Source of the DNA: Klebsiella pneumoniae
GTDB taxonomy: Bacteria; Pseudomonadota; Gammaproteobacteria; Eutrophobiales; Eutrophobiaceae
Length of the DNA stretch: 64,000 nt
NCBI GenBank assembly: GCA_945870865.1
Contig: CAMBTO010000002.1
Coordinates: 22,535 to 86,534, forward strand
Direction of reading: 5' to 3'
Under the pieces are notes generated by a model. That model made no database searches and was not told where the DNA came from. It saw only the letters and a program-made list of their open reading frames with translations. Shown here piece after piece: positions 1-61,542 of this stretch. Position numbers and translations under genes: made by a program. The first letter of the stretch is position 1; each line of letters starts with the position of its first letter.

Positions 1-453
1 TTCCGTGCACTCGATGCAAACCCGCAGAAGATGGCGTTCAGCGAGGTCTACCAGGCCTTGCAGACCGGTGTGGTTGATGGCCAGGAAAACACCTGGTCAA
101 ACATCTTTACCCAGAAATTCCATGAAGTACAGGATTCGATTACCGAGACGAATCACGGTGTGATCCTGTATATGGTCATTGCCAATTCGGACTGGTGGGA
201 CAGTCTGCCGGCAGATATTCAGACCGGCCTGTCAGAGGCGATGAATGAAGCGACTGTCTATGCAAACCAGCTTGCCTTTGAAATCAATGAGAACGACCGC
301 AAGCAGATCAGTGATGCGGGCAAGGCGAAGATCCATACGTTGAGCGCAGACGATCTTACGGAGTGGCGTGAGAAGATGGAGCCGGTATGGAAGAAGTATG
401 AGACAGACATCGGCAAGGATTTGATAGACGCTGCATTGCAGTCAAATAACTGA
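1..453 (+). CDS. TRAP transporter solute-binding protein, DctP family (5'-partial; the ORF is open to the window start)
   Basis: The translation contains EVYQALQTGVVDGQENTWSNI, typical of the DctP family. The reading frame is open from base 1, and the gene is followed directly by DctQ and DctM genes. Confidence 0.75.
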   Translation, partial: FRALDANPQKMAFSEVYQALQTGVVDGQENTWSNIFTQKFHEVQDSITETNHGVILYMVIANSDWWDSLPADIQTGLSEAMNEATVYANQLAFEINENDRKQISDAGKAKIHTLSADDLTEWREKMEPVWKKYETDIGKDLIDAALQSNN

Positions 454-475
454 TCGCAGGTCAAGGATAAATCCT

Positions 476-1021
476 ATGAGAATGTGGCTTGAACAACTGG
501 AAGAAGGGCTGATTGCACTTCTACTGGCGATGATGACAATCATCACGTTTGCGCAGGTGATTGCCCGCTATGTCTTCAATTTCAGTTTTGTCTGGGCACT
601 TGAGCTGGTCACCTTCCTGTTTGCCTGGCTGATCTTTATCGGCATGGCCTACGGCGTGCGTGTCGGTTCGCATATCGGTATCGATGCTGCGGTAAAGCTA
701 CTTGGCCCACGGCTCGGCCGGGCGGTCACCCTTCTTGCGATTGTACTCTGTATCGTCTATTCCGTGCTGGTCCTGACCGGTTGCTGGACCTACATTACCA
801 AGATCTACCAGATTGGAAATGAGGCGAAAGATATCGCCATACCGATCTGGATCCCGCGGCTCGCGCTGCCAATTGGTTTTGCACTGCTGACCTACCGTTT
901 CTGCGAACTCTTGTACCTGACTGTCAGGGGGAGGTCCACACACCTGATCGGCGATGAGGCTGAGGAAGCACTGAAATTGCGCGTTATTGACGATAACGCC
1001 CCGGCGCAGGACCCGCGATGA
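476..1021 (+). CDS. TRAP transporter small permease (DctQ family)
   Basis: 181 aa with 4 predicted TM segments, and it lies between the DctP-like and DctM-like genes. The stop overlaps the DctM start (ATGA). Confidence 0.8.
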   Translation: MRMWLEQLEEGLIALLLAMMTIITFAQVIARYVFNFSFVWALELVTFLFAWLIFIGMAYGVRVGSHIGIDAAVKLLGPRLGRAVTLLAIVLCIVYSVLVLTGCWTYITKIYQIGNEAKDIAIPIWIPRLALPIGFALLTYRFCELLYLTVRGRSTHLIGDEAEEALKLRVIDDNAPAQDPR

Positions 1022-2295
1022 CTACGGCAGCACTCTTTATCATGTTGCTCGTGTTCATGCTGATTGGCATGCCAATCGCAGTGGCGCTTGGTCTGTCTTC
1101 GGTGCTGACCATCCTTTTTTTTAGTCAGGGATCACTCGCCGCTCTCGCGCTGAAGTTGCTGAATACGGCCGATCATTTTACCCTGCTGTCGATACCATTC
1201 TTTATCCTGTCAGGTACCTTCATGACGACCGGCGGTGTGGCCCGGCGCATGGTCCACTTTGCCAATGCCTGTATCGGCCATTTCCGTGGTGGCCTTGGCA
1301 TGGCCTCGGTGCTCGCCTGTATGCTGTTTGCTGCCGTATCAGGTTCATCTCCGGCGACCGTGGTGGCCGTCGGCTCTATTGTTATTGCTGGCATGGTCAA
1401 GTCCGGTTATTCACGTGATTTTGCTGCCGGTGTCATTTGCAATGCCGGTACGCTGGGGATCCTGATCCCGCCGTCAATTGTGATGGTAGTCTACGCCGCC
1501 TCAACCGAGACGTCGGTGGGGCAGTTGTTTCTGGCCGGTATCGTCCCTGGCATCGTGCTCGGTGTGATGATGATGTTCGCCATCTATGTGCGTGCGCGCA
1601 TGCTCAATTTGCCCTTGCAACCGCGTGCGTCCATGAAGGAGATACTGACTGCCGGACGCGAGTCCATGTGGGGCCTGATGTTACTCGTGATCATCCTTGG
1701 CGGTATCTATGGTGGTGTATTTACCCCGACCGAGGCCGCTGCTGTGGCCGCCGTCTATGCGTTTTTCGTGGCCATATTTGTTCATCGTGATATCACCATG
1801 AAGGATGTGCCGCGGGTGCTGGTTGATGCGGCAAAGATATCGGTCATGCTGATGTTCCTTATTGCGAATGCGATGTTGTTTGCCTATGTATTGACCACAG
1901 AACGGATACCGCAGGAGATAGCCGAACATATTATCGCGATGGGACTGTCACCCTGGCAGTTTTTGATCGTGGTCAACCTGTTGTTACTTGTCGCCGGTAA
2001 CTTTATGGAACCTACCGGCATTATCCTGATCTTGGCACCGATCCTGTTACCGATCGCTGTCCAGTTGGGTATCGATCCGGTACATTTCGGCATCATCATG
2101 GTGGTAAATATGGAAATCGGTATGGTGACACCGCCTGTTGGTCTGAACCTGTTTGTCACTTCCGGTATCACCGGCATGACGATCATGGAAGTGGTCCGTG
2201 CCGCAATGCCCTGGTTGTCGGTGTTGGTGGTGTTTCTGATCATGATTACCTATCTACCAACGATATCATTGTGGTTACCGGGACTGCTGTTCTAG
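1018..2295 (+). CDS. TRAP transporter large permease (DctM family)
   Basis: 425-aa polytopic membrane protein with the typical DctM length and hydrophobic pattern. It is translationally coupled to the preceding DctQ gene. Confidence 0.85.
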   Translation: MTTAALFIMLLVFMLIGMPIAVALGLSSVLTILFFSQGSLAALALKLLNTADHFTLLSIPFFILSGTFMTTGGVARRMVHFANACIGHFRGGLGMASVLACMLFAAVSGSSPATVVAVGSIVIAGMVKSGYSRDFAAGVICNAGTLGILIPPSIVMVVYAASTETSVGQLFLAGIVPGIVLGVMMMFAIYVRARMLNLPLQPRASMKEILTAGRESMWGLMLLVIILGGIYGGVFTPTEAAAVAAVYAFFVAIFVHRDITMKDVPRVLVDAAKISVMLMFLIANAMLFAYVLTTERIPQEIAEHIIAMGLSPWQFLIVVNLLLLVAGNFMEPTGIILILAPILLPIAVQLGIDPVHFGIIMVVNMEIGMVTPPVGLNLFVTSGITGMTIMEVVRAAMPWLSVLVVFLIMITYLPTISLWLPGLLF

Positions 2296-2396
2296 AACAG
2301 AGTAGTCGGGACTGACGGGTATTGAAGTCAGAAAAACGTTGTTACAGTTTTATGTATATCGGCAGTAGTACACGGGTTAATCCAGCGGGGGGGCGT

Positions 2397-3377
2397 ATGA
2401 AATACAGTTATCTCACAAGGCTGTACTGCTTATTAGCGGTCATTCTCTCGGTCGGTCAGGTACAGGGCCAGACTATCGAACGGCTGGATCCTGCGCTTGA
2501 CGAGCTGATCTCTGTAGACGCAAAACCGGAGCTGATCACCGATCTGGGTGAAGGCGCCTCGGTAGAGGGTGGCGTCTGGAAAGAGGATGCGTCATTACCT
2601 GATGGAGGTTACTTCCTGTTCAGCAACCGGGGCCCGCGACAGATTTCCAGGTGGTCACCCAATACGGAACTTACAATGGCCTATGACCTGCAGAAAATTT
2701 TGCCGGACATGGAGGCTGAGAGTTCTTCCTCCAGCGGGACCGCGCTGGATCCGGAAGGCCGGCTGGTGTTTTGTGCCGGTGCATCACACTCGGTCATACG
2801 CCTTGAAAAGGATGGGACACCAACCGTACTCGCCCACCTGACCAACGGCCTGCCGCTGCATCGACCCAACGATCTGGTCATAAAGAACAATGGTTCAATC
2901 TTCTTCACCGACAACTCGCGTGACGAGACCGGCAAGGTGCCAGCGGCCGTGTATCTGATCAAGGACGGCAAGATGACGCAGATTATCAAGGGCGGCGGTA
3001 TTACCGGACCGAACGGGATTACGCTGTCGCCGGATGGCAAGGTGCTGTACGTGAACAACTCTCCTACACGTACAGTGTATCGTTACGACGTACTGGCGGA
3101 TGATACCGTGGCTAATGAAAAACTGTTTATCGACATGAGCGGGCGCAAGGAAGAGGGCACGACCGACGGTATCAAGACAGACGCGCAGGGTAATATCTAC
3201 AACACCGGACCGGGCGGAGTATGGATCATCTCACCGGAAGGCAAACATCTAGGCACAATACGCACACCGGAACGGCTGACCAATCTTGCCTTCGGCGGCA
3301 AGGATGGCAAGACATTGTTTCTGGTAGGCCATCAGATGCTGTTTCATATGCAGGTGAAGGTCGGAGGAATAAATTAA
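2397..3377 (+). CDS. secreted SMP-30/gluconolactonase/LRE-family beta-propeller protein
   Basis: Start chosen at the internal ATG (MKYSYLTRLYCLLAVILSVGQVQGQ), which gives a signal peptide. The GPNGITLSPDGKVLYVNN motif is typical of SMP-30/gluconolactonase/LRE proteins. The longer ORF from 2322 has no signal peptide and a non-proteinlike N-terminus. Confidence 0.6.
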   Translation: MKYSYLTRLYCLLAVILSVGQVQGQTIERLDPALDELISVDAKPELITDLGEGASVEGGVWKEDASLPDGGYFLFSNRGPRQISRWSPNTELTMAYDLQKILPDMEAESSSSSGTALDPEGRLVFCAGASHSVIRLEKDGTPTVLAHLTNGLPLHRPNDLVIKNNGSIFFTDNSRDETGKVPAAVYLIKDGKMTQIIKGGGITGPNGITLSPDGKVLYVNNSPTRTVYRYDVLADDTVANEKLFIDMSGRKEEGTTDGIKTDAQGNIYNTGPGGVWIISPEGKHLGTIRTPERLTNLAFGGKDGKTLFLVGHQMLFHMQVKVGGIN

Positions 3378-3545
3378 CAGTTTCAGTTGACTCTCAAACT
3401 GAGGAGCAGCCGCCTGCATAGTATTGTGAAAGACCGTGTGCCGCAGGGATGCGGAACCCGAGCCTACATGGATGTATTTACGGCATGTCTGGAACGATAC
3501 TATGCAGGTGGCTGCTCGGCCACCAAAGCCAATGCCCTTATATAA

Positions 3546-5711
3546 CTAGAAACTCCCCGTCAGCACCAGATTGACCCGCCGCCCCACATCGCGTTCGCGT
3601 AACAGATACGAATTGATCGGCGTCAGCCCACGTTCACCTGTGTAGATAGTCCGTTCGCGGAACTCGTCATATTTGAACAGGTTATGTCCCTCTATTCGCG
3701 CCTTGATACCGAACCAGCGAGTGGTCTCAACAAAGACACTGGCGAGCACGCCTTCGTTTGAAAGCTCTTCTTCATTCACCTTGAACGCCGGTCGCACCGC
3801 CTGTTCTGCCATGCGCCAGCCCCAGGCAATTCGTTCGGCCTCCAAATCCTGGCGGTAGGAGACATCAATCACATACTCGTTGCCCTGTCTGAACTTGATG
3901 TCCGGCACACCGCGAAAACCGGTGACGGCTGTCAGTACCCGATCTTGGCCGGTAACCGGGTCGACGACGGTCGAGTCCTGCCAGCGAAACTTGCTGTCCA
4001 GTTTGGCGCCGACGAGACCGAGCAAGGACAGTGGCAGCGTGGTCTCCACCTCAACGCCCCAGCGTCTGCCATCACCGATATTACCCGGTACTTCAAAATC
4101 CGCTGTGAGCGGTAACAGATCCAGCACATCGGTGATCCAGTGGTGAAAAGCGGTGACCTTGAGTACACCGGAATCGCCAAAGCGATGTTCATGGCCAATC
4201 TCGCCTACCCATGTGCGATCCGGACGCAGGTTCGGGTTACCAAGTGCGAGATCATCGTCTTCGAACACGGTCGTGCTGATAAAATCAGCAAAGTCGAGTT
4301 GCGCCACCTCGCGGGCCAGACGTATGCGTGTCTGCTGTCCCTTGGCATGGGTATAGCTGAGTGACGATTGCGGGGAGACGAAGAAAAATTCGCGTTTTAA
4401 TTCGGCATCACCCGTTTGCGAAATCTGTGATACCTCGGCACCGAGTCCGTAATCAAGCTCGAACTTGCCCAGTGACCAGGTATCTTTCAACAGAAAATCG
4501 CCGCGTGACTCTTCCACCAGCGAATTGCCGCCGGGTACAACGACTTCAATTATGCCGGCCCCGGTGTTCTCCGCCTGAAACAGTGTGCCGTCGAGCCGGT
4601 TATAGGCCCCTTCGACATTCAGCTGGATGGCATGGTTCGGCAACGTAGTCCAGTCGAGCTCCAGCCGCGTAATGGCCTCCCGCGTTTTACTGATCGTATC
4701 GGCCTGCCTGAACAATAGCTGGATGCCTTGTGTGGTTGCGGATGTCTGGGTCGAGGTGACGTCGGACAGTTTGTCGGTAAACAGCGCGATGACCTTGCCT
4801 GACAGTGTGTCGGTCAGTTCATGTTCGGCATCAATACCCAGCTCGTAGGTTTCGCTGTGTTGTGAATATTTGACCAGATTCTCGCGTGGTTTGCCGCTGA
4901 CGGGGATACGATGTGAGGCATGGCGTTCCGGACTGTTGCCTAGCCCGAACTTGCCATTGATATGCATAAAGGTATCGCCAAGCCAGGATGTGGCATTCAT
5001 GAACAGCCCGGTACTGAATCCGGTTTCCTTCTGTGTCTCATCACGTGTTTCAGTCAGTGTGTGCGTCGCGTCATATACGTACTCATTGCCGAGCTCACCG
5101 TTGCCGTCACGTAACATGTCCGCACCAAAATTATATTCAATGTCCTTCCAGCGGTCCGCGATAGAGGCCTTGACACCGGCCCGCAGCGGACTGGCCGTGC
5201 TGTACAGCGCATAGGTCTCCCAGCTGATTGCGGCGGCGGCATCTTCGGCCAGCTGCACGTCCACCACGGTGGATTGCCCGCGCAGATCTATACCTTTCAC
5301 CTGTCCGCGTATCACCTTGATCCCGGTAACTTGACTGGCGGGGATACGGGACAACAGGGCGGAAGGCTGGTCCTGTTTGGCGCTGGGAAACTGACCGTTG
5401 ATCAGGATATTTCCCGCGGCACCGGCAAAGCCTCGCGAGTCATCACCGTCATCGACCAGAAATCCAGGCACCTGTTTGACCATATCAAGCGCGGTATTCG
5501 GCTTGTAACGTGCAAAAAATGACGCCGCATATTCAACCACGGGTGATGAATCATCCACAGTTGGTATGACGTCCTGGGCAAATGCCGTGATACCAACACC
5601 CGGCAGTATCAGCAGTGACAGTATATGCAGGCAGATTATCTGCCTCGGTAGACGGGTAATCCGGCACAGTTGTTTCAATAGTGATGTTTGTGAATGATTC
5701 TTGACTGACAC
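3546..5711 (-). CDS. TonB-dependent outer-membrane receptor (paralog A)
   Basis: 721 aa with an N-terminal plug-like region (ALDMVKQVPGF...GAAGNILINGQ) and a long beta-rich body ending in an aromatic residue (…LTGSF). It is ~65-70% identical over the C-terminal 300 aa to the ORF at 7580-9712. Confidence 0.7.
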   Translation of the reverse strand: MSVKNHSQTSLLKQLCRITRLPRQIICLHILSLLILPGVGITAFAQDVIPTVDDSSPVVEYAASFFARYKPNTALDMVKQVPGFLVDDGDDSRGFAGAAGNILINGQFPSAKQDQPSALLSRIPASQVTGIKVIRGQVKGIDLRGQSTVVDVQLAEDAAAAISWETYALYSTASPLRAGVKASIADRWKDIEYNFGADMLRDGNGELGNEYVYDATHTLTETRDETQKETGFSTGLFMNATSWLGDTFMHINGKFGLGNSPERHASHRIPVSGKPRENLVKYSQHSETYELGIDAEHELTDTLSGKVIALFTDKLSDVTSTQTSATTQGIQLLFRQADTISKTREAITRLELDWTTLPNHAIQLNVEGAYNRLDGTLFQAENTGAGIIEVVVPGGNSLVEESRGDFLLKDTWSLGKFELDYGLGAEVSQISQTGDAELKREFFFVSPQSSLSYTHAKGQQTRIRLAREVAQLDFADFISTTVFEDDDLALGNPNLRPDRTWVGEIGHEHRFGDSGVLKVTAFHHWITDVLDLLPLTADFEVPGNIGDGRRWGVEVETTLPLSLLGLVGAKLDSKFRWQDSTVVDPVTGQDRVLTAVTGFRGVPDIKFRQGNEYVIDVSYRQDLEAERIAWGWRMAEQAVRPAFKVNEEELSNEGVLASVFVETTRWFGIKARIEGHNLFKYDEFRERTIYTGERGLTPINSYLLRERDVGRRVNLVLTGSF

Positions 5712-6045
5712 GAACGAATACCTCGGCTATAAGACCGCGCGCAGATTACCATTTACTGTGGGTTTTTGATATTAGGGTGGTTTTTGGACGCACAAAGGTT
5801 GCATGTACTGTATTAATCAACAAATCCCGATATCGCCTTCCGCAAAGAGTGATTTACAGTTATCAACCTTTTTTATAACCGTCAGTGGAAACGGGTAGAA
5901 CCCATTTTTACGTATAGCCTGCCAGCAGTTTTGCATTGTTAAGTACGGAGTATCTTTGCGGGGTATACAGACATTTACACCATGTAATTATCAAAACATT
6001 TCAATTAGATAGGCTCTTAGTTCGGTCCCGTTCATTGCCGCACAG

Positions 6046-6318
6046 GTGTATCTGGGCGATACAGGACTTTACCTGGCTGCCGGTATTGCGGGACTGACTG
6101 ACGTTGACGCAATCACGCTGGCAATGGCAGACCTCACCCGGTCTGACGGGAGTAATCTCAATATCGCATCGCGTGCCATTGTCATTGCTGTCCTTGCCAA
6201 TACCTTCGTCAAGAGCAGTATGGCCGCCAGTCTGGGTTCGATTAAACTGCGCAGGATTACACTGCCACTATCAGGTGCGTTGTTTGCAGCAGGCATTGCG
6301 GCGATATTGCTAATCTGA
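6046..6318 (+). pseudogene. orphan C-terminal fragment of a DUF4010/MgtC-like membrane protein (GTG-initiated 90-aa ORF; likely gene remnant)
   Basis: The GLTDVDAITLAMADL...AIVIAVLANTFVKSSMA motif resembles the C-terminus of DUF4010 proteins. There is an in-frame stop 36 bp upstream, so the N-terminal ~300 aa expected for the family are absent. Confidence 0.35.
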
Positions 6319-6379
6319 TCCGAAAAGTCGTGATCAGGTAATTACACGACAAATATTGAATTCCCTCCATGTGTATCTG

Positions 6380-7372
6380 TTACTGGTCCAGCGTACTGTG
6401 GGCCATCACTTCATCCAGTTTCATCAGCCGTGGCGTGAGTCCCTGCTCGAAAGAATATTGCGCGGCGGTTTCCAGCACCTTCCGGTTTGCCTTAATACCG
6501 TGACGCACGACAGCTTCCTGCAAGGCCTTTGCCGCGTCCGTTGAAATCAGACCGGTGGTGACGTGGTAGTCCACATGTTCCATACGTTGCCTGTTGGTTA
6601 ACTCGTTGGCCTGTTCAAACGCCTTTAACAGGTTAAGCACGACCCAGGGGTGTTTTTCGACAATCTCACGACGCACAACCATGCCGTGATTGATTGGGTA
6701 AATGCCGGTCTTGCGGTAGTAACGTATGCCCTCGGCCTGAGGATCAGGAAACAGTGATCGAATGTCGGGGTGATTGTGCAGGTCGGCGGTACTGCGGTCG
6801 ACCAGGTTATTGTGACGCAGATAATGGATGACCGCATCCAGTTCGCCTGCAAGCATCATTGAGCCGATATTTTTCTCCGGCGGGATCGGGTTGATGGTCA
6901 CACCCGGTGGCGCCTTGAAGCCCACGCTGGCGGCATGGCTGTGTGTTGGTACGCGTTCCATCCAGTGCTGCATGTCCTGTTGGGGTACACCAAATTCATG
7001 CTGGAGTATGCCGCGCGTCCATAACGCAGCGGTTTGCTGGTATTCCGGCACACCCACACGACGACCCTTCAGATCGGCGGGTGTCTTTATCCCTGACTCC
7101 TTGCGCACCAGGATTTCGGTATGGAAGAATTTGCGGGTGGTAAAGATCGGCAGCCCGACCCAGCGGTCATCGCCTCCGGCCACAGCCATCATCAGTGACG
7201 AAAATGACATCTCGGACAAATCAAAATCGGCAAACTTCAGTTGCCGCCAGAACATCTCGGATGGATGTAATACGGTCGGTATCAGATCGATTCCGTCTGG
7301 CTGTACGCGTCCATCCAGAATGGGCCAGGTGCGCGGGTTAGAGGCAAGGGCAATACTGAGTTGCAGTTTCAT
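6380..7372 (-). CDS. 4,5-dihydroxyphthalate decarboxylase-family protein (NMT1/THI5-like periplasmic-binding fold)
   Basis: 330 aa. The N-terminus MKLQLSIAL...LDGRVQPDGIDL...FWRQL.FDLSEMS...LKGRRVGV...RGILQHEFGV matches the conserved signature of the Pht5-type decarboxylase family as I recall it. Confidence 0.55.
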   Translation of the reverse strand: MKLQLSIALASNPRTWPILDGRVQPDGIDLIPTVLHPSEMFWRQLKFADFDLSEMSFSSLMMAVAGGDDRWVGLPIFTTRKFFHTEILVRKESGIKTPADLKGRRVGVPEYQQTAALWTRGILQHEFGVPQQDMQHWMERVPTHSHAASVGFKAPPGVTINPIPPEKNIGSMMLAGELDAVIHYLRHNNLVDRSTADLHNHPDIRSLFPDPQAEGIRYYRKTGIYPINHGMVVRREIVEKHPWVVLNLLKAFEQANELTNRQRMEHVDYHVTTGLISTDAAKALQEAVVRHGIKANRKVLETAAQYSFEQGLTPRLMKLDEVMAHSTLDQ

Positions 7373-7579
7373 CGATTCCTTTGTCGGCCTGCGTACAGGC
7401 AGTAATTTTATGTGTTATCAGAGTCAGATTAACAAAACAGACCGCTGTTACACAAATGTTACACAAACAAATCAGTACAGATCTACGGAGATTGTATTGC
7501 TCTTACCTATAATTGCTGTAAAACCGGTCGTTCACAAGGTATCCTGTGGCTTCAAGAAAAATTCAATATCAGGTAAAAA

Positions 7580-9712
7580 ATGCGCTACAGTGAATTTATT
7601 GTTTGTCTGTTTACGGCCTCAATCGTTGCCGTCGGCCCCGCTTATGGACAGGGGAGTGACAGTAAGGCCACGTCTGACGTGGCCCTGTCCACTGCAGGTG
7701 CCGGTTCGGAACTGGTCAGTTATCCAGCTGATTTTTTTCATAAATTCAAGCCACTGACAGCACTTGATATGGTGCGACAGGTCCCCGGCTTTCAACTTGA
7801 AGAGAGTGTGGACGGTCCTCGCGGTTTTGCCGCCGGCGCGGGTAATCTTCTGATCAATGATCAACGTCCCAGCGCGAAGCAGGACCTGCCCTCGGCGATA
7901 CTGTCACGTATTCCCGCAGGCAATGTCGAGCGTATCGAGCTGATACTGGGTCAGGTGCGTGGTATCGATCTGCGTGGCCAGTCCTCGCTGATAAATATCA
8001 TCCTGCATGAAGACAGTCCGGGCGCGGTCAAGTGGGAGGGGGCGGTGCTGGTCCCGTTCAAACACGGTCCTTTGACACCGATAGTCAATGTTTCACTTTC
8101 AGATAAATGGAATGAAATAGAGTACAGCACGGGCCTGTCGATGACAGGCAACTCCTATGGTCGTCACGGGCTGGATCAGCTTTTTAATGGCAACGGTATC
8201 CTCACCGAAAACCGGTTTGATAACCGGGAAAACCGGATTAAAACCTGGAAAGGCAATTTCAATGCCGTCTCCCTGCTGACGGGAGGTACGCTGGTCAAGC
8301 TGAATACGGTTTTCACCCATGAGTCTCGTGACCAGTTTCTGGTTTCGGACCGAGTCCCTGAGGCGGCAGGCAGTCCTCCTCGGGTCGAGACATTCGATGA
8401 TAATCTGAAAGCACCGGGTCTTGAGATCGGACTCGACGCAGAACGTAATCTCTATAACGACCTGACCGGCAAGGCCATCCTGCTGTTCTACCGCAAGGAC
8501 GAGCAGACTTACCGTACCCAGCGTGTGCTGTATACCCTGGGGAACCAGACATCCTTCCGTGTGGCCGAAGGTGATGGTATCGCGACCGAACTTATCACCC
8601 GTGTTGAATTTGACTGGCGTGGTCTGCCCGAGCAGACGCTGCAGCTGAATCTGGAGCGGGCCTATAACAGTCTGGACCGCACACTGCAATCCACGCTCGA
8701 TAGCGGCAGTGGACCGGTTGCGTTTGACGTGCCGGGCGCTGATTCGCTGGTAAAGGAAGAGCGTTACGACCTGTTGTTACAGGACACCTGGTCACGCGGC
8801 AGGCTGCAGGTGGATCTGGGTCTGGGCGCCGAGGCCTCGACCATTACCCAGAGCGGCGACGCTGAGCAACAACGTGATTTCTTTTTTGTGAAACCCCAGG
8901 GTGTACTGACCTATACCCGGGAACAGGGCGGTCAGACCCGCCTGCGGATTGCGCGAGAGGTTGCACAACTTGATCTGACTGACTTTGTCAGTGCCACCCT
9001 GTTTGAAGATGATGACCTTGCGCTCGGCAATCCCGATATCCAGCCGGATACCACCTGGATCAGTGAGATCAGCCATGAACGCCGTTTTGGTGATGTAACC
9101 GTGGTCAAGCTGACCACCTATCATCACTGGATAGCGAATGTGCTCGACCTGCTGCCGTTGACGCCGACGTTTGAGGTGCCGGGAAATATCGGTGACGGTA
9201 GACGTTGGGGTGTCGAACTGGAGGCTACGCTGCCACTCGAATGGCTCGGCCTGACCGGGGCAAAGGTTGATGTGAAAACGCGCTGGCAGGATTCGACCGT
9301 GGTTGATCCGGTGACCGGTCAGGACCGCATACTGTCGAGTATCGAAGGCGATTTTCCGATTTTATACAATGTACCAAACCGCCACGGCTACAGCGTGGAC
9401 TATCGTCAGGACTTCGAGGCCTCACGTGTGGCCTGGGGCTGGACGTTGATATCACGCGGTGAACGCCCGTTGTTCAAGGTGAATGAACTGGAGGTTTACG
9501 ACGAGACGCCGGACCTTAACATGTTTATCGAAACGACGCGTTGGCTCGGTATCAAGGTGCGCCTGTCAACCCAGAACGTGCTGGATACACCGGGGTCACG
9601 AAATCGTACCGTGTTTACCGGTCAGCGCGACCTCAGTCCGATCAGGTTCCGTGAGGTACGTGAGCGGTATCGCGACAAGTCGGTCACTCTGACGTTCAGC
9701 GGGGTATACTGA
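7580..9712 (+). CDS. TonB-dependent outer-membrane receptor (paralog B)
   Basis: 710 aa with a signal peptide (…AVGPAYGQ) and a plug motif (ALDMVRQVPGF…GAGNLLINDQRP…NVERIELI), ending with an aromatic C-terminus (…FSGVY). It is a paralog of 3546-5711. Confidence 0.7.
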   Translation: MRYSEFIVCLFTASIVAVGPAYGQGSDSKATSDVALSTAGAGSELVSYPADFFHKFKPLTALDMVRQVPGFQLEESVDGPRGFAAGAGNLLINDQRPSAKQDLPSAILSRIPAGNVERIELILGQVRGIDLRGQSSLINIILHEDSPGAVKWEGAVLVPFKHGPLTPIVNVSLSDKWNEIEYSTGLSMTGNSYGRHGLDQLFNGNGILTENRFDNRENRIKTWKGNFNAVSLLTGGTLVKLNTVFTHESRDQFLVSDRVPEAAGSPPRVETFDDNLKAPGLEIGLDAERNLYNDLTGKAILLFYRKDEQTYRTQRVLYTLGNQTSFRVAEGDGIATELITRVEFDWRGLPEQTLQLNLERAYNSLDRTLQSTLDSGSGPVAFDVPGADSLVKEERYDLLLQDTWSRGRLQVDLGLGAEASTITQSGDAEQQRDFFFVKPQGVLTYTREQGGQTRLRIAREVAQLDLTDFVSATLFEDDDLALGNPDIQPDTTWISEISHERRFGDVTVVKLTTYHHWIANVLDLLPLTPTFEVPGNIGDGRRWGVELEATLPLEWLGLTGAKVDVKTRWQDSTVVDPVTGQDRILSSIEGDFPILYNVPNRHGYSVDYRQDFEASRVAWGWTLISRGERPLFKVNELEVYDETPDLNMFIETTRWLGIKVRLSTQNVLDTPGSRNRTVFTGQRDLSPIRFREVRERYRDKSVTLTFSGVY

Positions 9713-9743
9713 AAAAAAACCCCGTCACCAGGACGGGGTTTTA
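9713..9743. terminator. bidirectional rho-independent terminator between the TonB-dependent receptor B gene and the PEP-CTERM gene
   Basis: The sequence is an A-run, then CCCCGTC-accagg-GACGGGG, then TTTT. The GC-rich 7-bp stem is flanked by A and T tracts. Confidence 0.6.
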
Positions 9744-9769
9744 AAGACTACGGGGACTACGGTTGGTGA

Positions 9770-10363
9770 CTAGTTGTTCGAGCGGCGTTTGCGCATGCCG
9801 GCCAGACCCAGCAGGCTGAGTGACAACAGCGCAAGGCTACCCGGCTCAGGAACAGCCGTCGGATTATCATTGCTGAAGTTGGCGATAAATCTGTGATCTA
9901 GACCGATGAAGTCAGTCATATCATTTATCGAGCCAAAGACCGAGTTACCACCAGAGTAAACATCGTTAAAGATAAAGTGGGCAGTTGATCTAGTAAAACC
10001 GTTATAGTCGATTAAGGCCCAGACGGTGCTGCCACCAGTCAGTTCCATATCGATGTCAATCACGTTAATAGCAGCGACATTGACGACAACCGAAGTCGAG
10101 AACAAGGTGTTGCCGAAGTTCAACGCATCCGTCAGGATGAAGTTGAAAGTCAGACCGTTTGATTCTTCGTCAAAGTAAAAACCAATATCATCGAGCGTGG
10201 TATCCGTATTATCGACCGTTAATGACGGGCCACTGCCTGCCCATGCGCTACTAACGTTACCATCCCATAATGCGCTGGTATCAATAACAGCAGCCTGTGA
10301 GGCGACGGGCAACAACCCGATGAACGCTACACTCATCAACAATGATAATATTCTGGAACGCAT
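9770..10363 (-). CDS. PEP-CTERM sorting-domain secreted protein
   Basis: The C-terminus is VPEPGSLALLSLSLLGLAGMRKRRSNN, i.e. the PEP motif, a TM helix and an Arg-rich tail. The start was moved to the internal ATG (10363), which has an AGGAG RBS 11 nt upstream and a signal peptide (MRSRILSLLMSVAFIGLLPVASQA). Confidence 0.75.
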   Translation of the reverse strand: MRSRILSLLMSVAFIGLLPVASQAAVIDTSALWDGNVSSAWAGSGPSLTVDNTDTTLDDIGFYFDEESNGLTFNFILTDALNFGNTLFSTSVVVNVAAINVIDIDMELTGGSTVWALIDYNGFTRSTAHFIFNDVYSGGNSVFGSINDMTDFIGLDHRFIANFSNDNPTAVPEPGSLALLSLSLLGLAGMRKRRSNN

Positions 10364-10756
10364 TACGGCTGACTCCTCATGAATTTGACTAATCTTCAGA
10401 TTCGGTACTGGTTCACAGTTTAAGAGCAATTTTCGTACCACAAATATTAATAAATAAAATCAACAACTTCTGTTTAGGCGCGGGTGCGGAAGTGTAAAAA
10501 ACTTCGTCAGTTAGCGCCCGGTATATACATGTTTTGAGCTATCTTGTGTCGTTCATTGTTAGTCAAGCATATGAATTTATTATAAAAAATCTGGATAACA
10601 TGGCTTGTTTTACTTTGTAAACTATTCCGACATAACAAAATACCCGGACCAAGGCTGACTCCCGCTACACAGTCCTGGCAGTATCACTACGTTTTCGGGA
10701 GATCAGGCGACACAATCACGCCAGATTTACAGTAATGACTTTGAAGAGGCGCATCC

Positions 10757-11557
10757 ATGTTCAGATCAGAGAGAGGCAGATACCGGGGTCAGCAGGTTGT
10801 TTTGACCGGACTTATCCCGTGGCTGTTGTTCATCAGTATGTCCGCTCTGGCGGAGGGTACGTTGACGGATAATCTCCGAATCCGCAGCAAGGTGCTCGGT
10901 TACGACCTGCAATATCGTGTCTATCTACCACAAGCCGGTCAGGACGCCGGGCCCTATCCGGCATTGTTCATGACAGACGGTCAGAATTATCTCGGACGCG
11001 GTCATATGGATCAGGTTCTGGATCGCGAGACCGGCAAAGGTTCAATCCGCCCTGTCATAGCCGTGTTTGTGGATCCACGAGACCCGGACGACCCGGAGAC
11101 GAACCGGCGTCGACAACAGTTTCTGTGTAACTCTGAATATTTCCAGTTTTATGTTGAGGAACTGATCCCCGCGATCGAAGCCAGTTATCCGGTCATACGC
11201 GACCGTACAGGCAGGACGATCATGGGCGTGTCATTTGGGGGGACCAATGCGGCCTGTTTCGGCGCACTCGGTTCGGAGACCTTCTCCGGCCTGGTCATGC
11301 AGTCTCCCGCGAACCACCCGGTCCCGAACCTGTTACCGGTCTATGCGCAACTGCCCACACTGCCGCTGAAGATATTTCTGAGCACCGGCACGCCGGATGA
11401 TAATACGGAGGCGAACCGCGAGTTTCATGCGTTGTTACAGGATAAGGCTTACCCGATAAAATATGTTGAGGTGGACGAGGGGCACGACTGGAACAACTGG
11501 GGCCCGCTACTGGACGATGTGCTCGTTTATTTCTACGGGGTGGAAGCGGAACGTTGA
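10757..11557 (+). CDS. secreted esterase-family alpha/beta hydrolase (putative esterase, enterochelin-esterase-like fold)
   Basis: Signal peptide present. GVSFGG is a GxSxG nucleophile motif, and there is a conserved Asp/His-containing C-terminal part (EGHDWNNW). Confidence 0.6.
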   Translation: MFRSERGRYRGQQVVLTGLIPWLLFISMSALAEGTLTDNLRIRSKVLGYDLQYRVYLPQAGQDAGPYPALFMTDGQNYLGRGHMDQVLDRETGKGSIRPVIAVFVDPRDPDDPETNRRRQQFLCNSEYFQFYVEELIPAIEASYPVIRDRTGRTIMGVSFGGTNAACFGALGSETFSGLVMQSPANHPVPNLLPVYAQLPTLPLKIFLSTGTPDDNTEANREFHALLQDKAYPIKYVEVDEGHDWNNWGPLLDDVLVYFYGVEAER

Positions 11558-11564
11558 GTTATTG

Positions 11565-12440
11565 TCAGGCCAGCCGTTTTGCTAGATAGACCTGACCTGC
11601 GACCAGCGCGGCCACCAGCCAACTGTGCCATTCGACGACTTCGTCCAACAGCCAGGCCGCGGCAAACAAGGTGAGAAAGGTTTGCAGCAGTTGCACCTGT
11701 GAAACACGGGCCACACCGCCGAGGCTGAGACCGGCGTACCAGGGGAAAAAACCCAGTAACTGACTGACAAGGGCCAGATACAGGAACGCCGCGACAGCAG
11801 GAAGCGGAACGGTTGCGATGGTATCTAGCTGCATTACCATATATATCACGGTCGGGATACTGAACGGCAGCATCATTACCATCGCCCAGCAGATCGTGTT
11901 AATGCCGCCGAGTGTCCGGGTCACGCTGGCGCCAGCACTGTAGGCAATCGCGGCTGAAATTGCGGCCAGCAACAGCCAGAGATCCTCTGCTACCAGCCGG
12001 ATGCCGCTGTTCCATAAGATGTAGGCAAGCACACTCAGACAGCCGCTAACCGCGATCAGCCAAAATGATTTGCCATGTTTTTCCTGATGGCTGATCGCAC
12101 CGAGTATGGATGTCAACAGCGGCAGGATGGCGAGCACTATGCCGGCATGCGACGCATCGGTATGTGTCAGTGCGATACCGAGCGACAGCGGAAAACCGAC
12201 CGACACCCCGAGTGAGACCATGACCAGTCGCTTCCAGTACACACGCGCTGGCCAGTGCTCCCGGCGCAGATAGAGGATGAGGGCGGCCAGTACACCGGCG
12301 ATGGATACCCGTCCTGCTGTAATGAAGTAAGGGGAAAAGCCCTGTAAGGCGAGGCGGGTGAACGGGGCGGTCAGGCTGAAACAGGCCATACCGATGAACC
12401 CGTAGATCATGCCGCGCCAGATGTGTGTGTGAGTGTTCAT
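11565..12440 (-). CDS. DMT-superfamily (EamA-like) transporter
   Basis: 10-TM hydrophobic pattern with two EamA-like halves. The start is uncertain: MNTHTHIW at 12440 was chosen over the upstream ATG at 12497, and there is no clear RBS. Confidence 0.7.
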   Translation of the reverse strand: MNTHTHIWRGMIYGFIGMACFSLTAPFTRLALQGFSPYFITAGRVSIAGVLAALILYLRREHWPARVYWKRLVMVSLGVSVGFPLSLGIALTHTDASHAGIVLAILPLLTSILGAISHQEKHGKSFWLIAVSGCLSVLAYILWNSGIRLVAEDLWLLLAAISAAIAYSAGASVTRTLGGINTICWAMVMMLPFSIPTVIYMVMQLDTIATVPLPAVAAFLYLALVSQLLGFFPWYAGLSLGGVARVSQVQLLQTFLTLFAAAWLLDEVVEWHSWLVAALVAGQVYLAKRLA

Positions 12441-12592
12441 TATTTGGTCGTGCATAGTGAACCAAAACGCCCTGTAAATCATCTGATATCCGGGCACGTT
12501 GAAAATTGAAAGCGAATTATTCTCACCTGACTCTGTGCCGGGTTTGCGTTATTATCCAGACATTCCGGATTTACAAGATTGAGGACTTATAG

Positions 12593-13039
12593 ATGAAATT
12601 AATCGTCGTTATTACCTTAACACTGATGTTATCTCTCCCTGTTGCACAGGCCGAGATGAGTGATGTGGAATCGACCCGCCTGCTGGCAGAACAGGATGAT
12701 CCGTATTCGCAGTTATACCTCGCCTACATGTATGAACACGGCAAGGGTTTGCCGGTTGATATGGAGCAGGCCTACCACTGGTATCGTAAGGCTGCCGACC
12801 ATGGCATGCCTGCTGGACAGCACAGTCTCGGTCTGATGTATGCGGAGGGTGTAGTCGTACCACAGGATGATCTCGCAGCCTATATCTTCTTTTATATGGC
12901 TGCCGTGCAGAGTCATGATGGCGCCAGTAAAAAGCGGGATGAGATGGCGGCCAGACTGAATGCAGAGCAACTGGATCGGGGACAAAAGCTGGCCATTGCC
13001 TGTGTGGAGTCGCGTTATACAGAATGCCCGTTGCAATAA
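12593..13039 (+). CDS. Sel1-repeat (TPR-like) periplasmic protein
   Basis: Signal peptide, then repeated YxxAAxxGxxxAQxxLGxMYxxG motifs (LAYMYEHGKG, LGLMYAEG). There is a GAGGA RBS. Confidence 0.65.
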   Translation: MKLIVVITLTLMLSLPVAQAEMSDVESTRLLAEQDDPYSQLYLAYMYEHGKGLPVDMEQAYHWYRKAADHGMPAGQHSLGLMYAEGVVVPQDDLAAYIFFYMAAVQSHDGASKKRDEMAARLNAEQLDRGQKLAIACVESRYTECPLQ

Positions 13040-13061
13040 CCCGCCGGACGGTTGAGACAGC

Positions 13062-14096
13062 ATGAATAATTCGCCAATCGATTTGCGCAGTGATACCGTC
13101 ACCCGACCGACACCGGCGATGCGTCAGGCCATGGCTACGGCCGAGGTAGGTGATGATGTGCTCGGGGATGATCCTACCGTTATTGAACTGGAACGTGTTA
13201 CCGCCGCCCTGCTGGGAAAACAGGCGGCGCTGTTTGTTCCGTCAGGCACGATGGCAAACCAGCTGGCTATCCGTTGCCACACGCAGCCGGGCGACGAGGT
13301 CCTGCTCGAGGCGCAGTCACATATCTACTGGTACGAGGCCGGTGCCCCGGCGGCACTGTCCGGCGTGAACTGTCGCGTCGTACCAGGGACACGTGGTTTG
13401 TTTACCGCCGATCAACTACGATCTGTCCTGCGTCCGCTAAATATTCATTACGCCCCAACGCGCCTGCTCACACTGGAGAACACCCACAACCGGGGTGGCG
13501 GATCCGTCTGGCCACTGGTGCAGATGCAACAGGTCTGTGCCGTCGCACGGGAAGCGGGTATCGCCACTCATCTGGATGGGGCGCGATTGTGGAACGCCGC
13601 CATCGCGACCGGGATAGCCGAACGCGCGTACGCAGACAATTTTGATAGCGTCAGCGTGTGTTTCTCCAAGGGCCTTGGCGCCCCGATGGGATCGATACTC
13701 GCTGGCAGTGCAGAGTTCATCACCCGGGCGCGCCGGTTTCGCAAACAGTTTGGTGGCGGCATGCGCCAGGTCGGCATTATTGCGGCCGGTGCCCTGTACG
13801 CATTGAATCACCATCGCGCCCGACTGGCGGATGACCATGCGAATGCGGCACGACTGGCGCGGGGTCTGACAGATATACCAGGACTGCGGGTGAACAGTCA
13901 TGAGGTCGACACGAATATGGTTTATTTTGAAGTCGACAAACTGCCGTCTGCTGAAGTGGCCGCGCTGCTGGACACACAAGGCTTACGGGTACTGGCCACC
14001 GGACCACACACATTGCGGGCTGTGACCAGTCTGGAAGTGGATGCGGACGCAATTGATAGTGCAGCAAGGATCATCCGCGAGGTCGTGACGGGCTGA
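13062..14096 (+). CDS. ltaE: low-specificity L-threonine aldolase
   Basis: N-terminus [19 protein letters not shown]…[10 protein letters not shown] and the PLP-enzyme pattern are typical of LtaE. 344 aa. Confidence 0.85.
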
Positions 14097-14244
14097 TTTG
14101 GCTGAGGTGGCCAGACAAAGATGATCTGTATTTAAAGAACTTTCTGATTACGTGTCATTTCGACCGAAGTGGAGAAATCACGTTGGTTGGCATGACAAGA
14201 TGTACATAATGAAATAACAGTCCAATAGTAACCTAGGGGGATTC

Positions 14245-15669
14245 ATGCACAAACACCTGTTCCGTTATACCTGTCTCTGCTCACTCGTCAGCTTGCTGAT
14301 CATATTCCCCGCCCAGGCACAAACCGGTGCGAATGTGGAAAAGGTCGCCGGTGCAGACTGGATCCATCTGTCCAAACCTGACATCGTCAAGCTGTCAGAG
14401 GAAGTGCTGGCGATGCCGGACATCCCGGTACGTTCGACCGAAGTGGTTCATCGCATAGAGGCACTCGGCCTGCAATGGGATATTGCCGCGAGTGTGCACG
14501 AGCCTGAAGACCCGGCACGTATCCCGGTCGGCCCCGATGGAAAAAAAATCGGCCTGTTTATATTGCACGGTGGTGGAGGACATCATCCAGGCAAGAATGA
14601 ATTCGCCCGTTTTCTGGCGACCAAATTCGGTTACAAGGTCGTCAACATGTCCTATCCGGGTAACTACAATCTGCAGGATACGAGCGGTAACTGGTCAGGA
14701 GAGACCATGCACCCGGACGGCTCGGTCAGGACACCGGTTTATCTGAAAGATGAAATCATCACGAAAGACCAGTATGAGGTGGTGACCGATACCGAGGACT
14801 CACGCCGTCGGCGCTGGGGTACGTTGTATCTCGCTTGTGCGAAGGAAGGCTCGAATTTTTATGACCGCCTGGCAGGCTGGCCGCGGGCACATGAGGCAGG
14901 CGCGACCGAACTTGCCCGCCGTTATTTGCCCGAAGGTGAATTCTCGATTTATAGCCACGGTCATTCTACCGGCGGTCCGATGACGATGATGTTGACCCAG
15001 CGTATCCCGAACATTGTCGGTGTGCTCGGACTGGAGAGCTCACCGTTTGGAGCCTTGTACGGCAAGATGACGCGTGAACAGCAGGGCATAGACGTGCCGT
15101 GGGCGGCGGACTTTAATTGTCTGCGCATACGCAGTTGGCGCGACATCGCGCGTTATTACGGCTACGAGTTGATAGAAGAAGAAGGCGTGGATGCGTTGGC
15201 GCGTCTGGCCATGGTGATCGAGGAAGTAATGGAAAAAACCGAACGCGGCTTGTCTTCGGCCCTGTTCAAGGCCGAGAACATCCTGCATTTTGACAGCCCG
15301 GAACAGATGGAGGCCGCCGCAAGGGCGAGTGCAAAACGGCTGAATATGGGCAAGGAAGAAACCGAGGAACTGGTCGACAGGTATCTTGGATATCTGCGCG
15401 GTGTGTCTGGCCCCGGTGTCAAGCCGGTGCCGCCATTGTTACTGATCATTGCCAGCAACAGTCGCGACCATGATGCACGTGCCTACCGTGAGATCTATCT
15501 GCCCGGTTATGCCGCGATGAAACCGGCACCCCTGGTCAAGCTGTTCGAGTTTGCGACCGGTAAACATGGCTACAGTGCGCCGGAGGAAGATTTGCCGATG
15601 GGTATTGCCCCAGGTGCCATGAAGTTGTGGAATGAGACGATCATGAGCGGTTATTACCTGCAGAAATGA
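14245..15669 (+). CDS. secreted alpha/beta-fold hydrolase (lipase/esterase-like), function unknown
   Basis: Signal peptide, an HGGGGHH oxyanion-like motif and a GHSTGG nucleophile elbow. There is a GGGG RBS upstream. Confidence 0.5.
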   Translation: MHKHLFRYTCLCSLVSLLIIFPAQAQTGANVEKVAGADWIHLSKPDIVKLSEEVLAMPDIPVRSTEVVHRIEALGLQWDIAASVHEPEDPARIPVGPDGKKIGLFILHGGGGHHPGKNEFARFLATKFGYKVVNMSYPGNYNLQDTSGNWSGETMHPDGSVRTPVYLKDEIITKDQYEVVTDTEDSRRRRWGTLYLACAKEGSNFYDRLAGWPRAHEAGATELARRYLPEGEFSIYSHGHSTGGPMTMMLTQRIPNIVGVLGLESSPFGALYGKMTREQQGIDVPWAADFNCLRIRSWRDIARYYGYELIEEEGVDALARLAMVIEEVMEKTERGLSSALFKAENILHFDSPEQMEAAARASAKRLNMGKEETEELVDRYLGYLRGVSGPGVKPVPPLLLIIASNSRDHDARAYREIYLPGYAAMKPAPLVKLFEFATGKHGYSAPEEDLPMGIAPGAMKLWNETIMSGYYLQK

Positions 15670-15713
15670 CCCTTTATACTTACTGCCACTGAAAAAAAAC
15701 AGGACTGAAATTT

Positions 15714-18903: not shown

Positions 18904-19103
18904 ATGATTCCTTGAAAGGGGGAACAAGATTTCGTGCGTGTCACGGTATTACGGGTGATGTCCCGAATTCCGCTAATGTCTGGGATCAGCCGTCTGGCTA
19001 TAATCGTTCAAGACACGTTATGAATACATCCATGTACGCTCGAGCGCCGCATCCCTGCGGCTAACGGTCTTTCACAATCATAGCCAGACGGCTGATGTAT
19101 AAT

Positions 19104-41262: not shown

Positions 41263-41303
41263 GCAAATACCTGTAATGACATGATGAGGTTGTATCTTTC
41301 CAC

Positions 41304-61466: not shown

Positions 61467-61542
61467 TGGCGCTCCCTAGGGGATTCGAACCCCTGTTACC
61501 GGCGTGAGAGGCCAGCGTCCTAGGCCTCTAGACGAAGGGAGC
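61467..61542 (-). tRNA. tRNA-Glu (anticodon CUC), CCA encoded
   Basis: The minus-strand sequence GCTCCCTTCGTCTAGAGGCCTAGGACGCTGGCCTCTCACGCCGGTAACAGGGGTTCGAATCCCCTAGGGAGCGCCA is near-identical in D-arm, T-arm and acceptor stem to E. coli tRNA-Glu. The anticodon loop is CUCUCAC. Confidence 0.85.

Follow-up and report, generated by a model that had tools for sequence, protein, structure and literature searches.

TonB-dependent carbohydrate and nutrient loci of Xanthomonas and Caulobacter (CUT-type, for example SuxA and SucA) bring together a receptor, an inner-membrane transporter and exported hydrolases, in genomes that carry many receptor paralogues. The same combination is found in the neighbourhood described here, which lies in a 64,000-nucleotide stretch (the window; assembly GCA_945870865.1, contig CAMBTO010000002.1, positions 22,535 to 86,534) of an uncultured gammaproteobacterium related to the GTDB order UBA4486 (Candidatus Eutrophobiales). 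Two genes for TonB-dependent receptors, A (3546-5711, minus strand) and B (7580-9712, plus strand), bracket a gene of the 4,5-dihydroxyphthalate decarboxylase family, DC (6380-7372, minus strand). Unlike CUT-type loci, the window has no glycoside hydrolase or linked regulator, its inner-membrane part is a TRAP transporter, and its receptors belong to a separate, divergent clade. SucA is mentioned in PMC11909599.

Other described systems resemble parts of the locus. DdvT of Sphingobium sp. SYK-6, a TonB-dependent transporter, takes up an aromatic dicarboxylate derived from lignin (PMC6874591, PMC8599685); there, too, the transporter is encoded beside catabolic genes and takes up a carboxylated organic nutrient rather than iron, but no specific sequence relation to it is detectable, and the window has two receptors and a dispensable catabolic partner. 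The 4,5-dihydroxyphthalate decarboxylases (EC 4.1.1.55; Pht5/PhtD/OphC type, reviewed in PMC13040137) are cytoplasmic enzymes of similar length and binding-protein-like fold to which DC is homologous over its full length; DC differs in belonging to another, very conserved orthologue group, in lacking a phthalate operon, and in that its orthologues elsewhere usually neighbour a two-subunit enzyme that resembles thiamine pyrophosphate (TPP)-dependent decarboxylases. PfeA and PfeE of Pseudomonas aeruginosa pair a receptor with a periplasmic enterobactin esterase (PMC8001512), much as a receptor gene of the window lies near a gene for an exported PF00756 esterase; the latter is closer to the feruloyl/CE1 type, however, and neither a Fur box nor a two-component or sigma/anti-sigma regulator is found nearby. 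Lastly, a relic between A and DC derives from an MgtC/SapB-family gene with a DUF4010 domain, but it is a pseudogene whose start codon and about 0.9 kb of interior are gone.

The locus is a vertically inherited, conserved and fairly ordinary TonB-dependent nutrient-uptake neighbourhood. As to what it does, we give an even chance to a pathway in which an esterified or carboxylated organic compound is imported by a TonB-dependent receptor, hydrolysed in the periplasm, taken up by the TRAP system and decarboxylated in the cytoplasm. A and/or B would import the compound, which is probably esterified or lactonised and carboxylated, and perhaps phenolic, over the outer membrane; an exported CE1-like esterase and an exported lactonase would cleave it in the periplasm; the adjoining TRAP transporter DctPQM, possibly together with an EamA-family transporter, would carry the resulting acid over the inner membrane; and DC would take off the carboxyl group in the cytoplasm, as an accessory step and not as an obligatory partner of the receptors.

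Conservation of the Receptors and the Decarboxylase-Family Gene

The window was compared with 175 fetched loci (L numbers), mainly DNA flanking receptors or DC, and with one further contig (P0123) through its gene table. The sister genome used as reference for dN/dS (the ratio of nonsynonymous to synonymous substitution rates) is represented by L013 (GenBank CAMDWI01, isolate MH-09jul19-253), and the CAMDWI01 loci (L013, L020, L021, L027, L034, L040, L054, L063, L064, L071 and L079) are collinear with the window, with 85-91% nucleotide identity over long syntenic blocks. The title 'Klebsiella pneumoniae' on the CAMDWI01 records is an evident taxonomy error. The order assignment of Candidatus Eutrophobius brisbanensis, whose genome measures 2.7 Mbp, is that of PMC11758582; the L_MB228 contigs that we saw total about 2.8 Mb. 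Relative to L013, dN/dS is 0.087 for A, 0.092 for B and 0.03-0.09 across intact genes; A, B and the other intact genes are under strong purifying selection.

Gene content between A and B takes four different forms in six related genomes. In the window, the gap holds the mgtC relic and DC. On the P0123 contig (B 87% identical), an intact gene for a 417-aa MgtC/DUF4010 protein (plus strand) is followed by one for a 330-aa PF12974 protein (minus strand), so that the order A(-), mgtC(+), DC(-), B(+) is intact in one sister genome. L013 (A 94%, B 87%) has only an intact 415-aa MgtC+DUF4010 gene (PF02308 and PF13194), and 43 bp stand in place of the window's 1,186-bp DC segment (6320-7505). In L171 (A 70%, B 69%), DC is alone (91%); it shares the strand of A, which it precedes by 42 bp, and is 286 bp divergent from B. 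The gap of L170 (A 73%, B 78%) contains five unrelated genes, including those for a methyltransferase, DoxX, a flavodoxin-like protein and LysR, and that of L010 (A 73-76%, B 63%) an ornithine-cyclodeaminase-family gene and TspO.

DC also occurs beside receptors elsewhere. On a short contig, L089, it is 89% identical and is transcribed divergently, at a distance of 130 bp, from the gene for a receptor that in the tree is sister to the B proteins of the window and L013; in L081/L082, an 88% identical orthologue is divergent from a different, canonical receptor of 893 aa; and in L018 and L060, receptors of the family are followed after 17-62 bp, on the same strand, by DC-family paralogues (35% and 46% identical). 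Adjacency of receptor and DC, judged from receptor-flanking loci, is kept down to about 62-70% receptor identity. Because the sister contig, L171 and L089 keep DC beside A or B orthologues, the link between receptor and DC is old and recurrent, but dispensable.

Several observations weigh against the proposed import and decarboxylation of one compound. The same receptor pair stands without DC in 3 of the 6 related genomes with complete A-B loci (L013, L170 and L010); the receptors can thus do without DC, and the region between them is a variable spot. DC orthologues of 68-78% identity in 80 loci (L090-L169, mostly from soil metagenomes) have no receptor adjoining, and their commonest immediate neighbour (33 of 99 neighbours) is a TPP-binding protein, an enzyme missing here. 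No regulator is linked to the receptors in the window. A TonB-box consensus could not be defined across the receptor family, in which the 15-25 residues after the signal peptide are unconserved (B has a TonB-box-like SDVALSTA, and one relative has ETIVSTT). The substrate class is suggested only by the family resemblances of the esterase and DC, which are weak, and the metal-related neighbours of some family members (see below) make a non-organic substrate possible for part of the family.

Part of this would suit a neighbourhood without coupling, in which the gap is a permissive spot for gene gain and loss, DC acts in a separate cytoplasmic pathway, and the receptors carry some other cargo. The diversity of the gap, three losses of DC during which A and B stayed intact, reciprocal decay (of mgtC in the window and of DC in L013), the pairing of DC orthologues elsewhere with TPP enzymes instead of receptors, and a B-specific upstream element that is conserved regardless of the presence of DC all point in this direction. 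We regard such a state of affairs as possible but rather unlikely: the position and orientation of DC beside B are constant down to 62-69% receptor identity, DC directly precedes A in L171, and adjacencies of DC-family genes with receptors have arisen independently in L018, L060 and L081. A first-pass annotation of the window had proposed an uptake and processing locus. What stands of this is a conserved and recurrent linkage, of the trio in L171 and P0123, of DC with B in L089, and of DC-family paralogues with other family receptors in L018 and L060; receptor paralogues are nevertheless very common and half of the relatives' pairs do without DC, so that its role in processing would be a dispensable one.

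Decay of mgtC and History of the Gap

The DUF4010 gene fragment recognised in the first-pass annotation is the tail of a pseudogene, and the remaining gene identities given there (two paralogous receptors, a DC-family gene and an exported esterase), like all the coordinates, are borne out by the listing of open reading frames (ORFs) and by domain searches. A 5' relic of mgtC, covering about codons 2-9, lies at 5822-5843 (plus strand; local alignment of 5768-5843 to L013 8560-8661), and its start codon was removed by a 26-bp deletion relative to L013. An AT-rich filler at 5844-6012 stands in for about 0.9 kb of the interior. The 3' relic at 6013-6318 (plus strand), in which homology is firm from about 6034, keeps the last ~95 codons at 82.7% nucleotide identity to the 3' end of the intact 415-aa gene of L013. 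The filler amounts to about 170 bp of unrelated sequence (38% GC over the measured stretch, 5844-6033) and showed no similarity beyond shuffles to the deleted mgtC interior (score 18 versus a shuffle mean of 18.7). An ORF of 90 aa at 6046-6318 matches only positions 148-210 of the 210 in PF13194, and is an ORF-finder artefact of the pseudogene tail. The relic's dN/dS of 0.17 over 90 codons cannot date the decay, as the stretch is too short and one of the two branches is still selected.

The simplest history begins with an old A-DC-B trio that gained an mgtC insertion in the ancestor of the window's genus. Loss was then reciprocal, of DC in L013 and of mgtC in the window; independently, DC was lost or replaced in L170 and in L010. 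Comparison with L013 had suggested a different course, in which DC was a recent horizontal insertion of 1.19 kb with concurrent decay of mgtC. This was rejected, on the strength of the adjacency of A, DC and B in L171, of the 330-aa PF12974 protein at the position and on the strand of DC in P0123, and of the host-like composition of DC (GC 0.551 and 0.639 at third codon positions, equal to its neighbours). Around DC there are no convincing terminal inverted repeats or target duplications of the kind left by mobile elements, and DNA matches of the DC flanks to L081, L088 and L089 lie within coding sequence only.

Receptors A and B

Receptor A has 721 aa, counted from a GTG start, and B has 710 aa; both exceed the gathering score of the TonB barrel model PF00593 (E 3.7e-18 and 4.8e-11, respectively). 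The two genes diverge in transcription, each from its own upstream region. The N-termini, read by eye, are hydrophobic and signal-peptide-like, and each protein ends in an aromatic residue, as in outer-membrane barrels (LTGSF in A, FSGVY in B). The plug model PF07715 matches the N-terminal 200 residues of A and B at E 0.02-0.03, below its gathering score; several members of the receptor family have a precomputed PF07715 match, and the family profile A1 reaches the plug of Cir at E 0.0017, its sole match among solved PDB chains. In an AlphaFold2 model of B (mean pLDDT 83.8), long antiparallel strands span residues ~149-709 and a folded N-terminal domain occupies residues 45-142. A plug domain is probably present but divergent.

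The 50 best PDB matches of this model in Foldseek are all TonB-dependent transporters (E 6e-21 to 1e-16, TM-score about 0.5, 9-14% identity), among them PhuR, BtuB, FoxA and OprC. The predicted structure thus confirms the TonB-dependent-transporter fold of B, but not its specificity: PDB sequence searches, NCBIfam and Foldseek singled out no receptor subclass, and the Foldseek matches span every specificity. On this point we agree with the first-pass annotation, which held that specificity cannot be assigned from sequence.

A and B are identical at 342 of 708 positions in BLASTP (48%, E = 0). By residues of B, identity is 48% over 1-150, 30% over 151-300, 47% over 301-420, 67% over 421-600 and 43% over 601-710. 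An earlier figure of 65-70% for the C-terminal halves is too high, since the half as a whole reaches 57% and 70% is attained only in residues 420-575; the motifs quoted in its support are essentially correct. In an alignment of 24 family sequences, DDDLALGNP, PGNIGDGRRWGVE and RWQDSTVVDPVTG are invariant or nearly so, and the core in which A and B are 67-70% identical is conserved family-wide. At the DNA level, A and B align in just three stretches, all internal to the coding sequences and 66-71% identical, with nothing alignable outside them. Two antisense ORFs (4140-4364 and 8792-9127) are, as had been noticed, similar to each other (34% identical, E 7e-15), a trivial by-product of the paralogy of A and B.

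The pair had been described as a large diverged inverted duplication. In a neighbour-joining tree of 116 distinct full-length members from the fetched loci, A and B fall in separate clades, each together with the orthologues that it has in other genomes. Because the two clades are different and old, and the shared core is found throughout the family, A and B did not arise by local duplication and are not each other's nearest relatives; they are best read as anciently diverged members of a large, lineage-expanded family.

A Receptor Family Expanded in Uncultured Gammaproteobacteria

The homologues of A and B are, with few exceptions, unnamed proteins from uncultured Gammaproteobacteria, and a single contig often encodes several. 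A pattern scan over one genome per species yielded 132 confirmed matches, and the 74 loci retained from it belong to metagenome-assembled genomes (MAGs) of UBA4486 type (Candidatus Eutrophobius brisbanensis and MAGs from lakes and estuaries), plus a few Woeseiaceae. Within the genome collection, the clade was found in uncultured Gammaproteobacteria alone, including UBA4486 and Woeseiaceae. A UBA4486-type MAG encodes at least 11-17 distinct full-length members in a genome of about 2.7 Mb or less, and the CAMDWI01 MAG encodes at least 13.

By our own estimate, a library of 1.84 billion representative proteins should contain far more than 3,541 TonB-dependent receptors. An exhaustive profile search of such a library returned 3,541 relatives at E <= 0.001, 999 of them at E <= 1e-30, and the clade therefore appears to be sharply separated from mainstream TonB-dependent receptors. 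The genes beside family receptors are a heterogeneous set, with Amidohydro_3, other receptors, pyrroloquinoline quinone (PQQ) dehydrogenases, cupins, esterases, DUF4159 and methyltransferases, which fits a diversified nutrient-scavenging family. A further-reaching proposal, which we consider unlikely, is that A and B represent an uncharacterised, sharply separated clade for which decarboxylases of binding-protein fold are recurrent, genuine partners, together forming a new scavenging route for carboxylated matter of phenolic or humic type.

In at least seven UBA4486-type MAGs, 5-7 paralogous family receptors stand in head-to-tail, operon-like arrays with spacers of 3-30 bp (L056 5722-20729; L017 5599-18453; L023 7124-20552; L053 9914-20614; also L075, L047 and L019). 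Orthology of the members from one genome to another shows that the arrays are old. On their upstream side they are flanked by genes for two VWA proteins, a cupredoxin-like protein and a CopD-cytochrome c fusion, and on their downstream side by genes for a Fur-family regulator and then ZnuA. These flanks raise the question of whether the family imports a metal or a metal chelate, in which case mgtC would mark a cation-homeostasis locus and DC and the esterase would be incidental. In L060, a gene for a Cu/Zn superoxide dismutase adjoins a receptor of the family, the best structural matches of the B model include the copper transporter OprC, and two sister genomes have an MgtC-family gene in the gap. 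Such a role is nonetheless improbable for the family as a whole, given that its commonest neighbours are amidohydrolases, PQQ dehydrogenases, cupins and esterases, that Foldseek favours no transporter subclass, and that no Fur- or Zur-like palindrome above shuffles was found upstream of A, of B or of the arrays beside the Fur-family regulator and znuA. For the Fur box itself (GATAATGATAATCATTATC), the best sites in 5712-6045 and 7373-7579, the latter being the interval in which a search had been advised, reach 10-11 of 19 positions, which shuffled sequences equalled or beat in 400-500 of 500 trials.

The Decarboxylase-Family Gene

DC encodes 330 aa of the 4,5-dihydroxyphthalate decarboxylase family, with a periplasmic-binding-protein fold. 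It matches the 4,5-dihydroxyphthalate decarboxylase of PDB entry 9jp7 at E 6.6e-59 over residues 2-328 of 330, and has weak Pfam matches to PF12974 and PF09084. Because its N-terminus, MKLQLSIALASNPRTW, is without a signal peptide, its match to 9jp7 is full-length, and the SsuA and PhnD models for binding proteins of ATP-binding cassette (ABC) systems score it far below their cut-offs, DC is predicted to be a cytoplasmic enzyme with a binding-protein fold; the possibility that it is an ordinary ABC substrate-binding protein, raised in the first-pass annotation, finds no support there, nor in the Pfam scan of its neighbours, among which no adjoining ABC genes were found.

DC and its distant paralogues have 21 invariant columns in common, and R43, D51, E54, S56 and H229 are among the residues that do not vary in the family. 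The 120 best matches of DC are 73-99% identical, and the few with a named source come from MAGs of Alphaproteobacteria or Xanthobacteraceae; in proteins so named the orthologue group is 74-78% identical, yet it is distant from 9jp7. Automatic JGI annotation names many of these orthologues '4,5-dihydroxyphthalate decarboxylase'. Their TPP-binding neighbours resemble the two subunits of sulfopyruvate/phosphonopyruvate decarboxylase, with scores below the cut-offs of those models. Taken over the 80 loci and L083-L087, DC orthologues most often adjoin such an enzyme and often have TctC binding proteins nearby; looked at one by one, their surroundings in other bacteria are catabolic islands of mixed content, with binding proteins of TctC type.

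Phthalate degradation places the decarboxylase with phthalate 4,5-dioxygenase and a cis-dihydrodiol dehydrogenase (PMC13040137). Neither a Rieske/phthalate dioxygenase nor a dihydrodiol dehydrogenase is among the genes annotated around the receptor pair with Pfam and NCBIfam, that is, those within 1-16343. In six DC orthologue contexts (L081, L083, L084, L087, L088 and L089), the dioxygenase-dehydrogenase pair is found in none, and Rieske and extradiol-dioxygenase (LigB) genes occur in L083 alone. On this evidence from homology and gene context, 'phthalate' would be a family label for DC, not its function, and the substrate given by automatic annotation to thousands of proteins of the DC group is probably wrong. 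A genuine catabolic locus for 4,5-dihydroxyphthalate and/or a receptor gene recently duplicated on the spot in inverted orientation would agree with the family-level homology of DC to the solved enzyme, with the JGI names, and with the inverted arrangement and 48% identity of A and B. We hold this to be extremely unlikely in view of the pathway genes missing at 1-16343, the separate orthologue group of DC, the different clades of A and B, and the confinement of their DNA similarity to conserved coding cores. The suggestion of a phthalate or other aromatic substrate made in the first-pass annotation is likewise unsupported, the orthologues elsewhere lying beside TPP enzymes that resemble sulfopyruvate decarboxylase.

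Exported Hydrolases and Inner-Membrane Transporters

Downstream of B, an exported esterase resembling CE1 and feruloyl esterases is encoded at 10757-11557 (plus strand; PF00756, E 2.4e-23). Its nearest solved relatives are the putative esterase 5vol (E 5e-15), the ferulic acid esterase 7xrt (E 1e-12) and the feruloyl esterase domain of XynZ; a solved enterochelin esterase is reached only at E 2e-7. A PF00756 esterase lies downstream of B-clade receptors in five loci (the window, L013, L010, L171 and L175) and is their most constant neighbour; L170 and L171 encode additional alpha/beta hydrolases.

This conserved pairing recalls the piracy of catecholate or ester siderophores, as in PfeA/PfeE (PMC8001512) and IroN/IroE, where the receptor takes up a ferric trilactone and a PF00756 esterase frees the iron, and the NCBIfam model for enterochelin esterase does match the esterase weakly (E 5.7e-18). 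That match, at 65 bits, is far under the cut-off of 222 bits, however, and the nearest solved enzymes are of the feruloyl/CE1 type. A Fur box is lacking, no gene for a siderophore-type ABC transporter, periplasmic binding protein, reductase, FecIR or PepSY is among those examined at 1-16343, and the window's large synthase cluster (see below) is of pfa type instead of a non-ribosomal peptide synthetase (NRPS). With 11-17 paralogues, some in tandem arrays, the receptor family also fits poorly. Siderophore piracy is thus very unlikely, and the 'siderophore-like' substrate named in the first-pass annotation finds no support.

Import of an organic ester or lactone, as proposed above, would draw on two further exported or membrane functions upstream of A. 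TRAP genes occupy 1-2295 on the plus strand (3' part of dctP, 1-453; dctQ, 476-1021; dctM, 1018-2295), with matches to PF04290 (E 1e-30) and PF06808 (E 4e-127); a dctP gene call lies upstream in L001. Their synteny with the receptor pair holds in L013, L010 and L171, and DctPQM is a candidate inner-membrane importer for the locus. An exported lactonase of SMP-30/gluconolactonase type is encoded at 2322-3377 (plus strand; PF08450, E 1.3e-41; PDB gluconolactonases, E 3e-20). Its true start is probably the ATG at 2397, which opens the signal-peptide-like MKYSYLTRLYCLLAVILSVGQVQG; the N-terminus of the esterase is signal-peptide-like as well. The lactonase is present in L013 and on the P0123 contig and absent in L010 and L171.

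An EamA-family (DMT) membrane transporter is encoded at 11565-12497 (minus strand; PF00892, E 6e-27). It is conserved in L013, L010, L170 and L171, and also follows the pair of receptor and DC-like gene in L018. A block dctPQM-(lactonase)-A(-)-[gap]-B(+)-...-esterase-EamA(-)-...-threonine aldolase is common to L013, L010, L170 and L171, and the P0123 contig shares it as far as its gene table extends. In L171, a ccdA/ccdB toxin-antitoxin pair (13759-14321) is inserted between EamA and threonine aldolase. A protein with a PEP-CTERM sorting signal (PF07589, TIGR02595) is encoded at 9770-10441 (minus strand), convergent with B; the gene is called in L001, and a 197-aa version would begin at 10363. 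Outside the window this gene was seen in L013 and the P0123 contig only, and the PEP-CTERM and Sel1 genes are confined to the closest relatives.

Putative Regulatory Elements and Repeats

A 32-nt element resembling a promoter or operator (7516-7547, plus strand; CTGTAAA-N-GTATYCTGT) lies 33-64 nt upstream of the start codon of B. It is kept upstream of B orthologues in L013, L170, L171 and L089, where the remainder of the spacer has diverged, and it persists where the B proteins are only 62-87% identical, with or without DC. The window has a single occurrence of the pattern (0 expected), and every occurrence in the 175 loci lies upstream of a B orthologue; the pattern was derived from the same sequences in which it was counted. 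The element is probably B's own promoter or operator. In L170, a LysR gene lies directly upstream of B.

A scan for sigma-70 promoters and terminators gave counts at or below shuffle expectation, with a single convincing structure, a GC-rich hairpin at 9716-9742 between the convergent genes for B and the PEP-CTERM protein. It has an 11-pair stem with T-tracts on both sides and is likely a bidirectional terminator. The spacer upstream of DC contains a perfect tandem repeat, two copies of TGTTACACAAA (7446-7467), none of which was seen in the L171 and L089 spacers.

The convergent gap between lactonase and receptor A holds a 114-nt palindromic repeat (3404-3517) with a 24-bp terminal stem, and the 168-nt intergenic region (3378-3545) folds at -75.7 kcal/mol (z -7.0). 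There is a second copy at 18984-19094, five matches occur in L013, and the repeat is also found in L040 and L054. At the junction of lactonase and receptor A, the window and L013 have it in opposite orientations. It resembles a miniature inverted-repeat transposable element (MITE) or a repetitive extragenic palindromic (REP) element and is not part of the mechanism.

Other Features of the Window

Further enzyme domains of scavenging type are a C-terminal phytase domain (PF02333) in a protein of 681 aa (19525-21570) and a 546-aa amidase (24114-25754). The synthase cluster at 34450-49522 (minus strand) is a polyunsaturated fatty-acid/polyketide synthase cluster of pfa type, not an NRPS or siderophore cluster; its ORFs encode proteins of 2,270 aa (KS-KS-AT-FabA), 2,182 aa (KS-AT-ACPx3-KR-DH) and 557 aa (enoyl-reductase-like). 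An Rfam scan of the window gave a single match, to a tRNA (61470-61542).

Implications for the Family and Its Hosts

For the present, the value of these results is mainly corrective: A and B are two old paralogues, the DUF4010 gene is a pseudogene whose ancestral order survives in a sister genome, and the siderophore and phthalate labels are unsupported. More intriguing than the locus itself is a by-product, the divergent receptor family with its tandem arrays. If the coupling of receptors and DC is true, it would offer a handle on the role of a large, unannotated receptor family in an uncultured order known only from MAGs, and on the real substrate of a widespread group of proteins automatically named '4,5-dihydroxyphthalate decarboxylase'.

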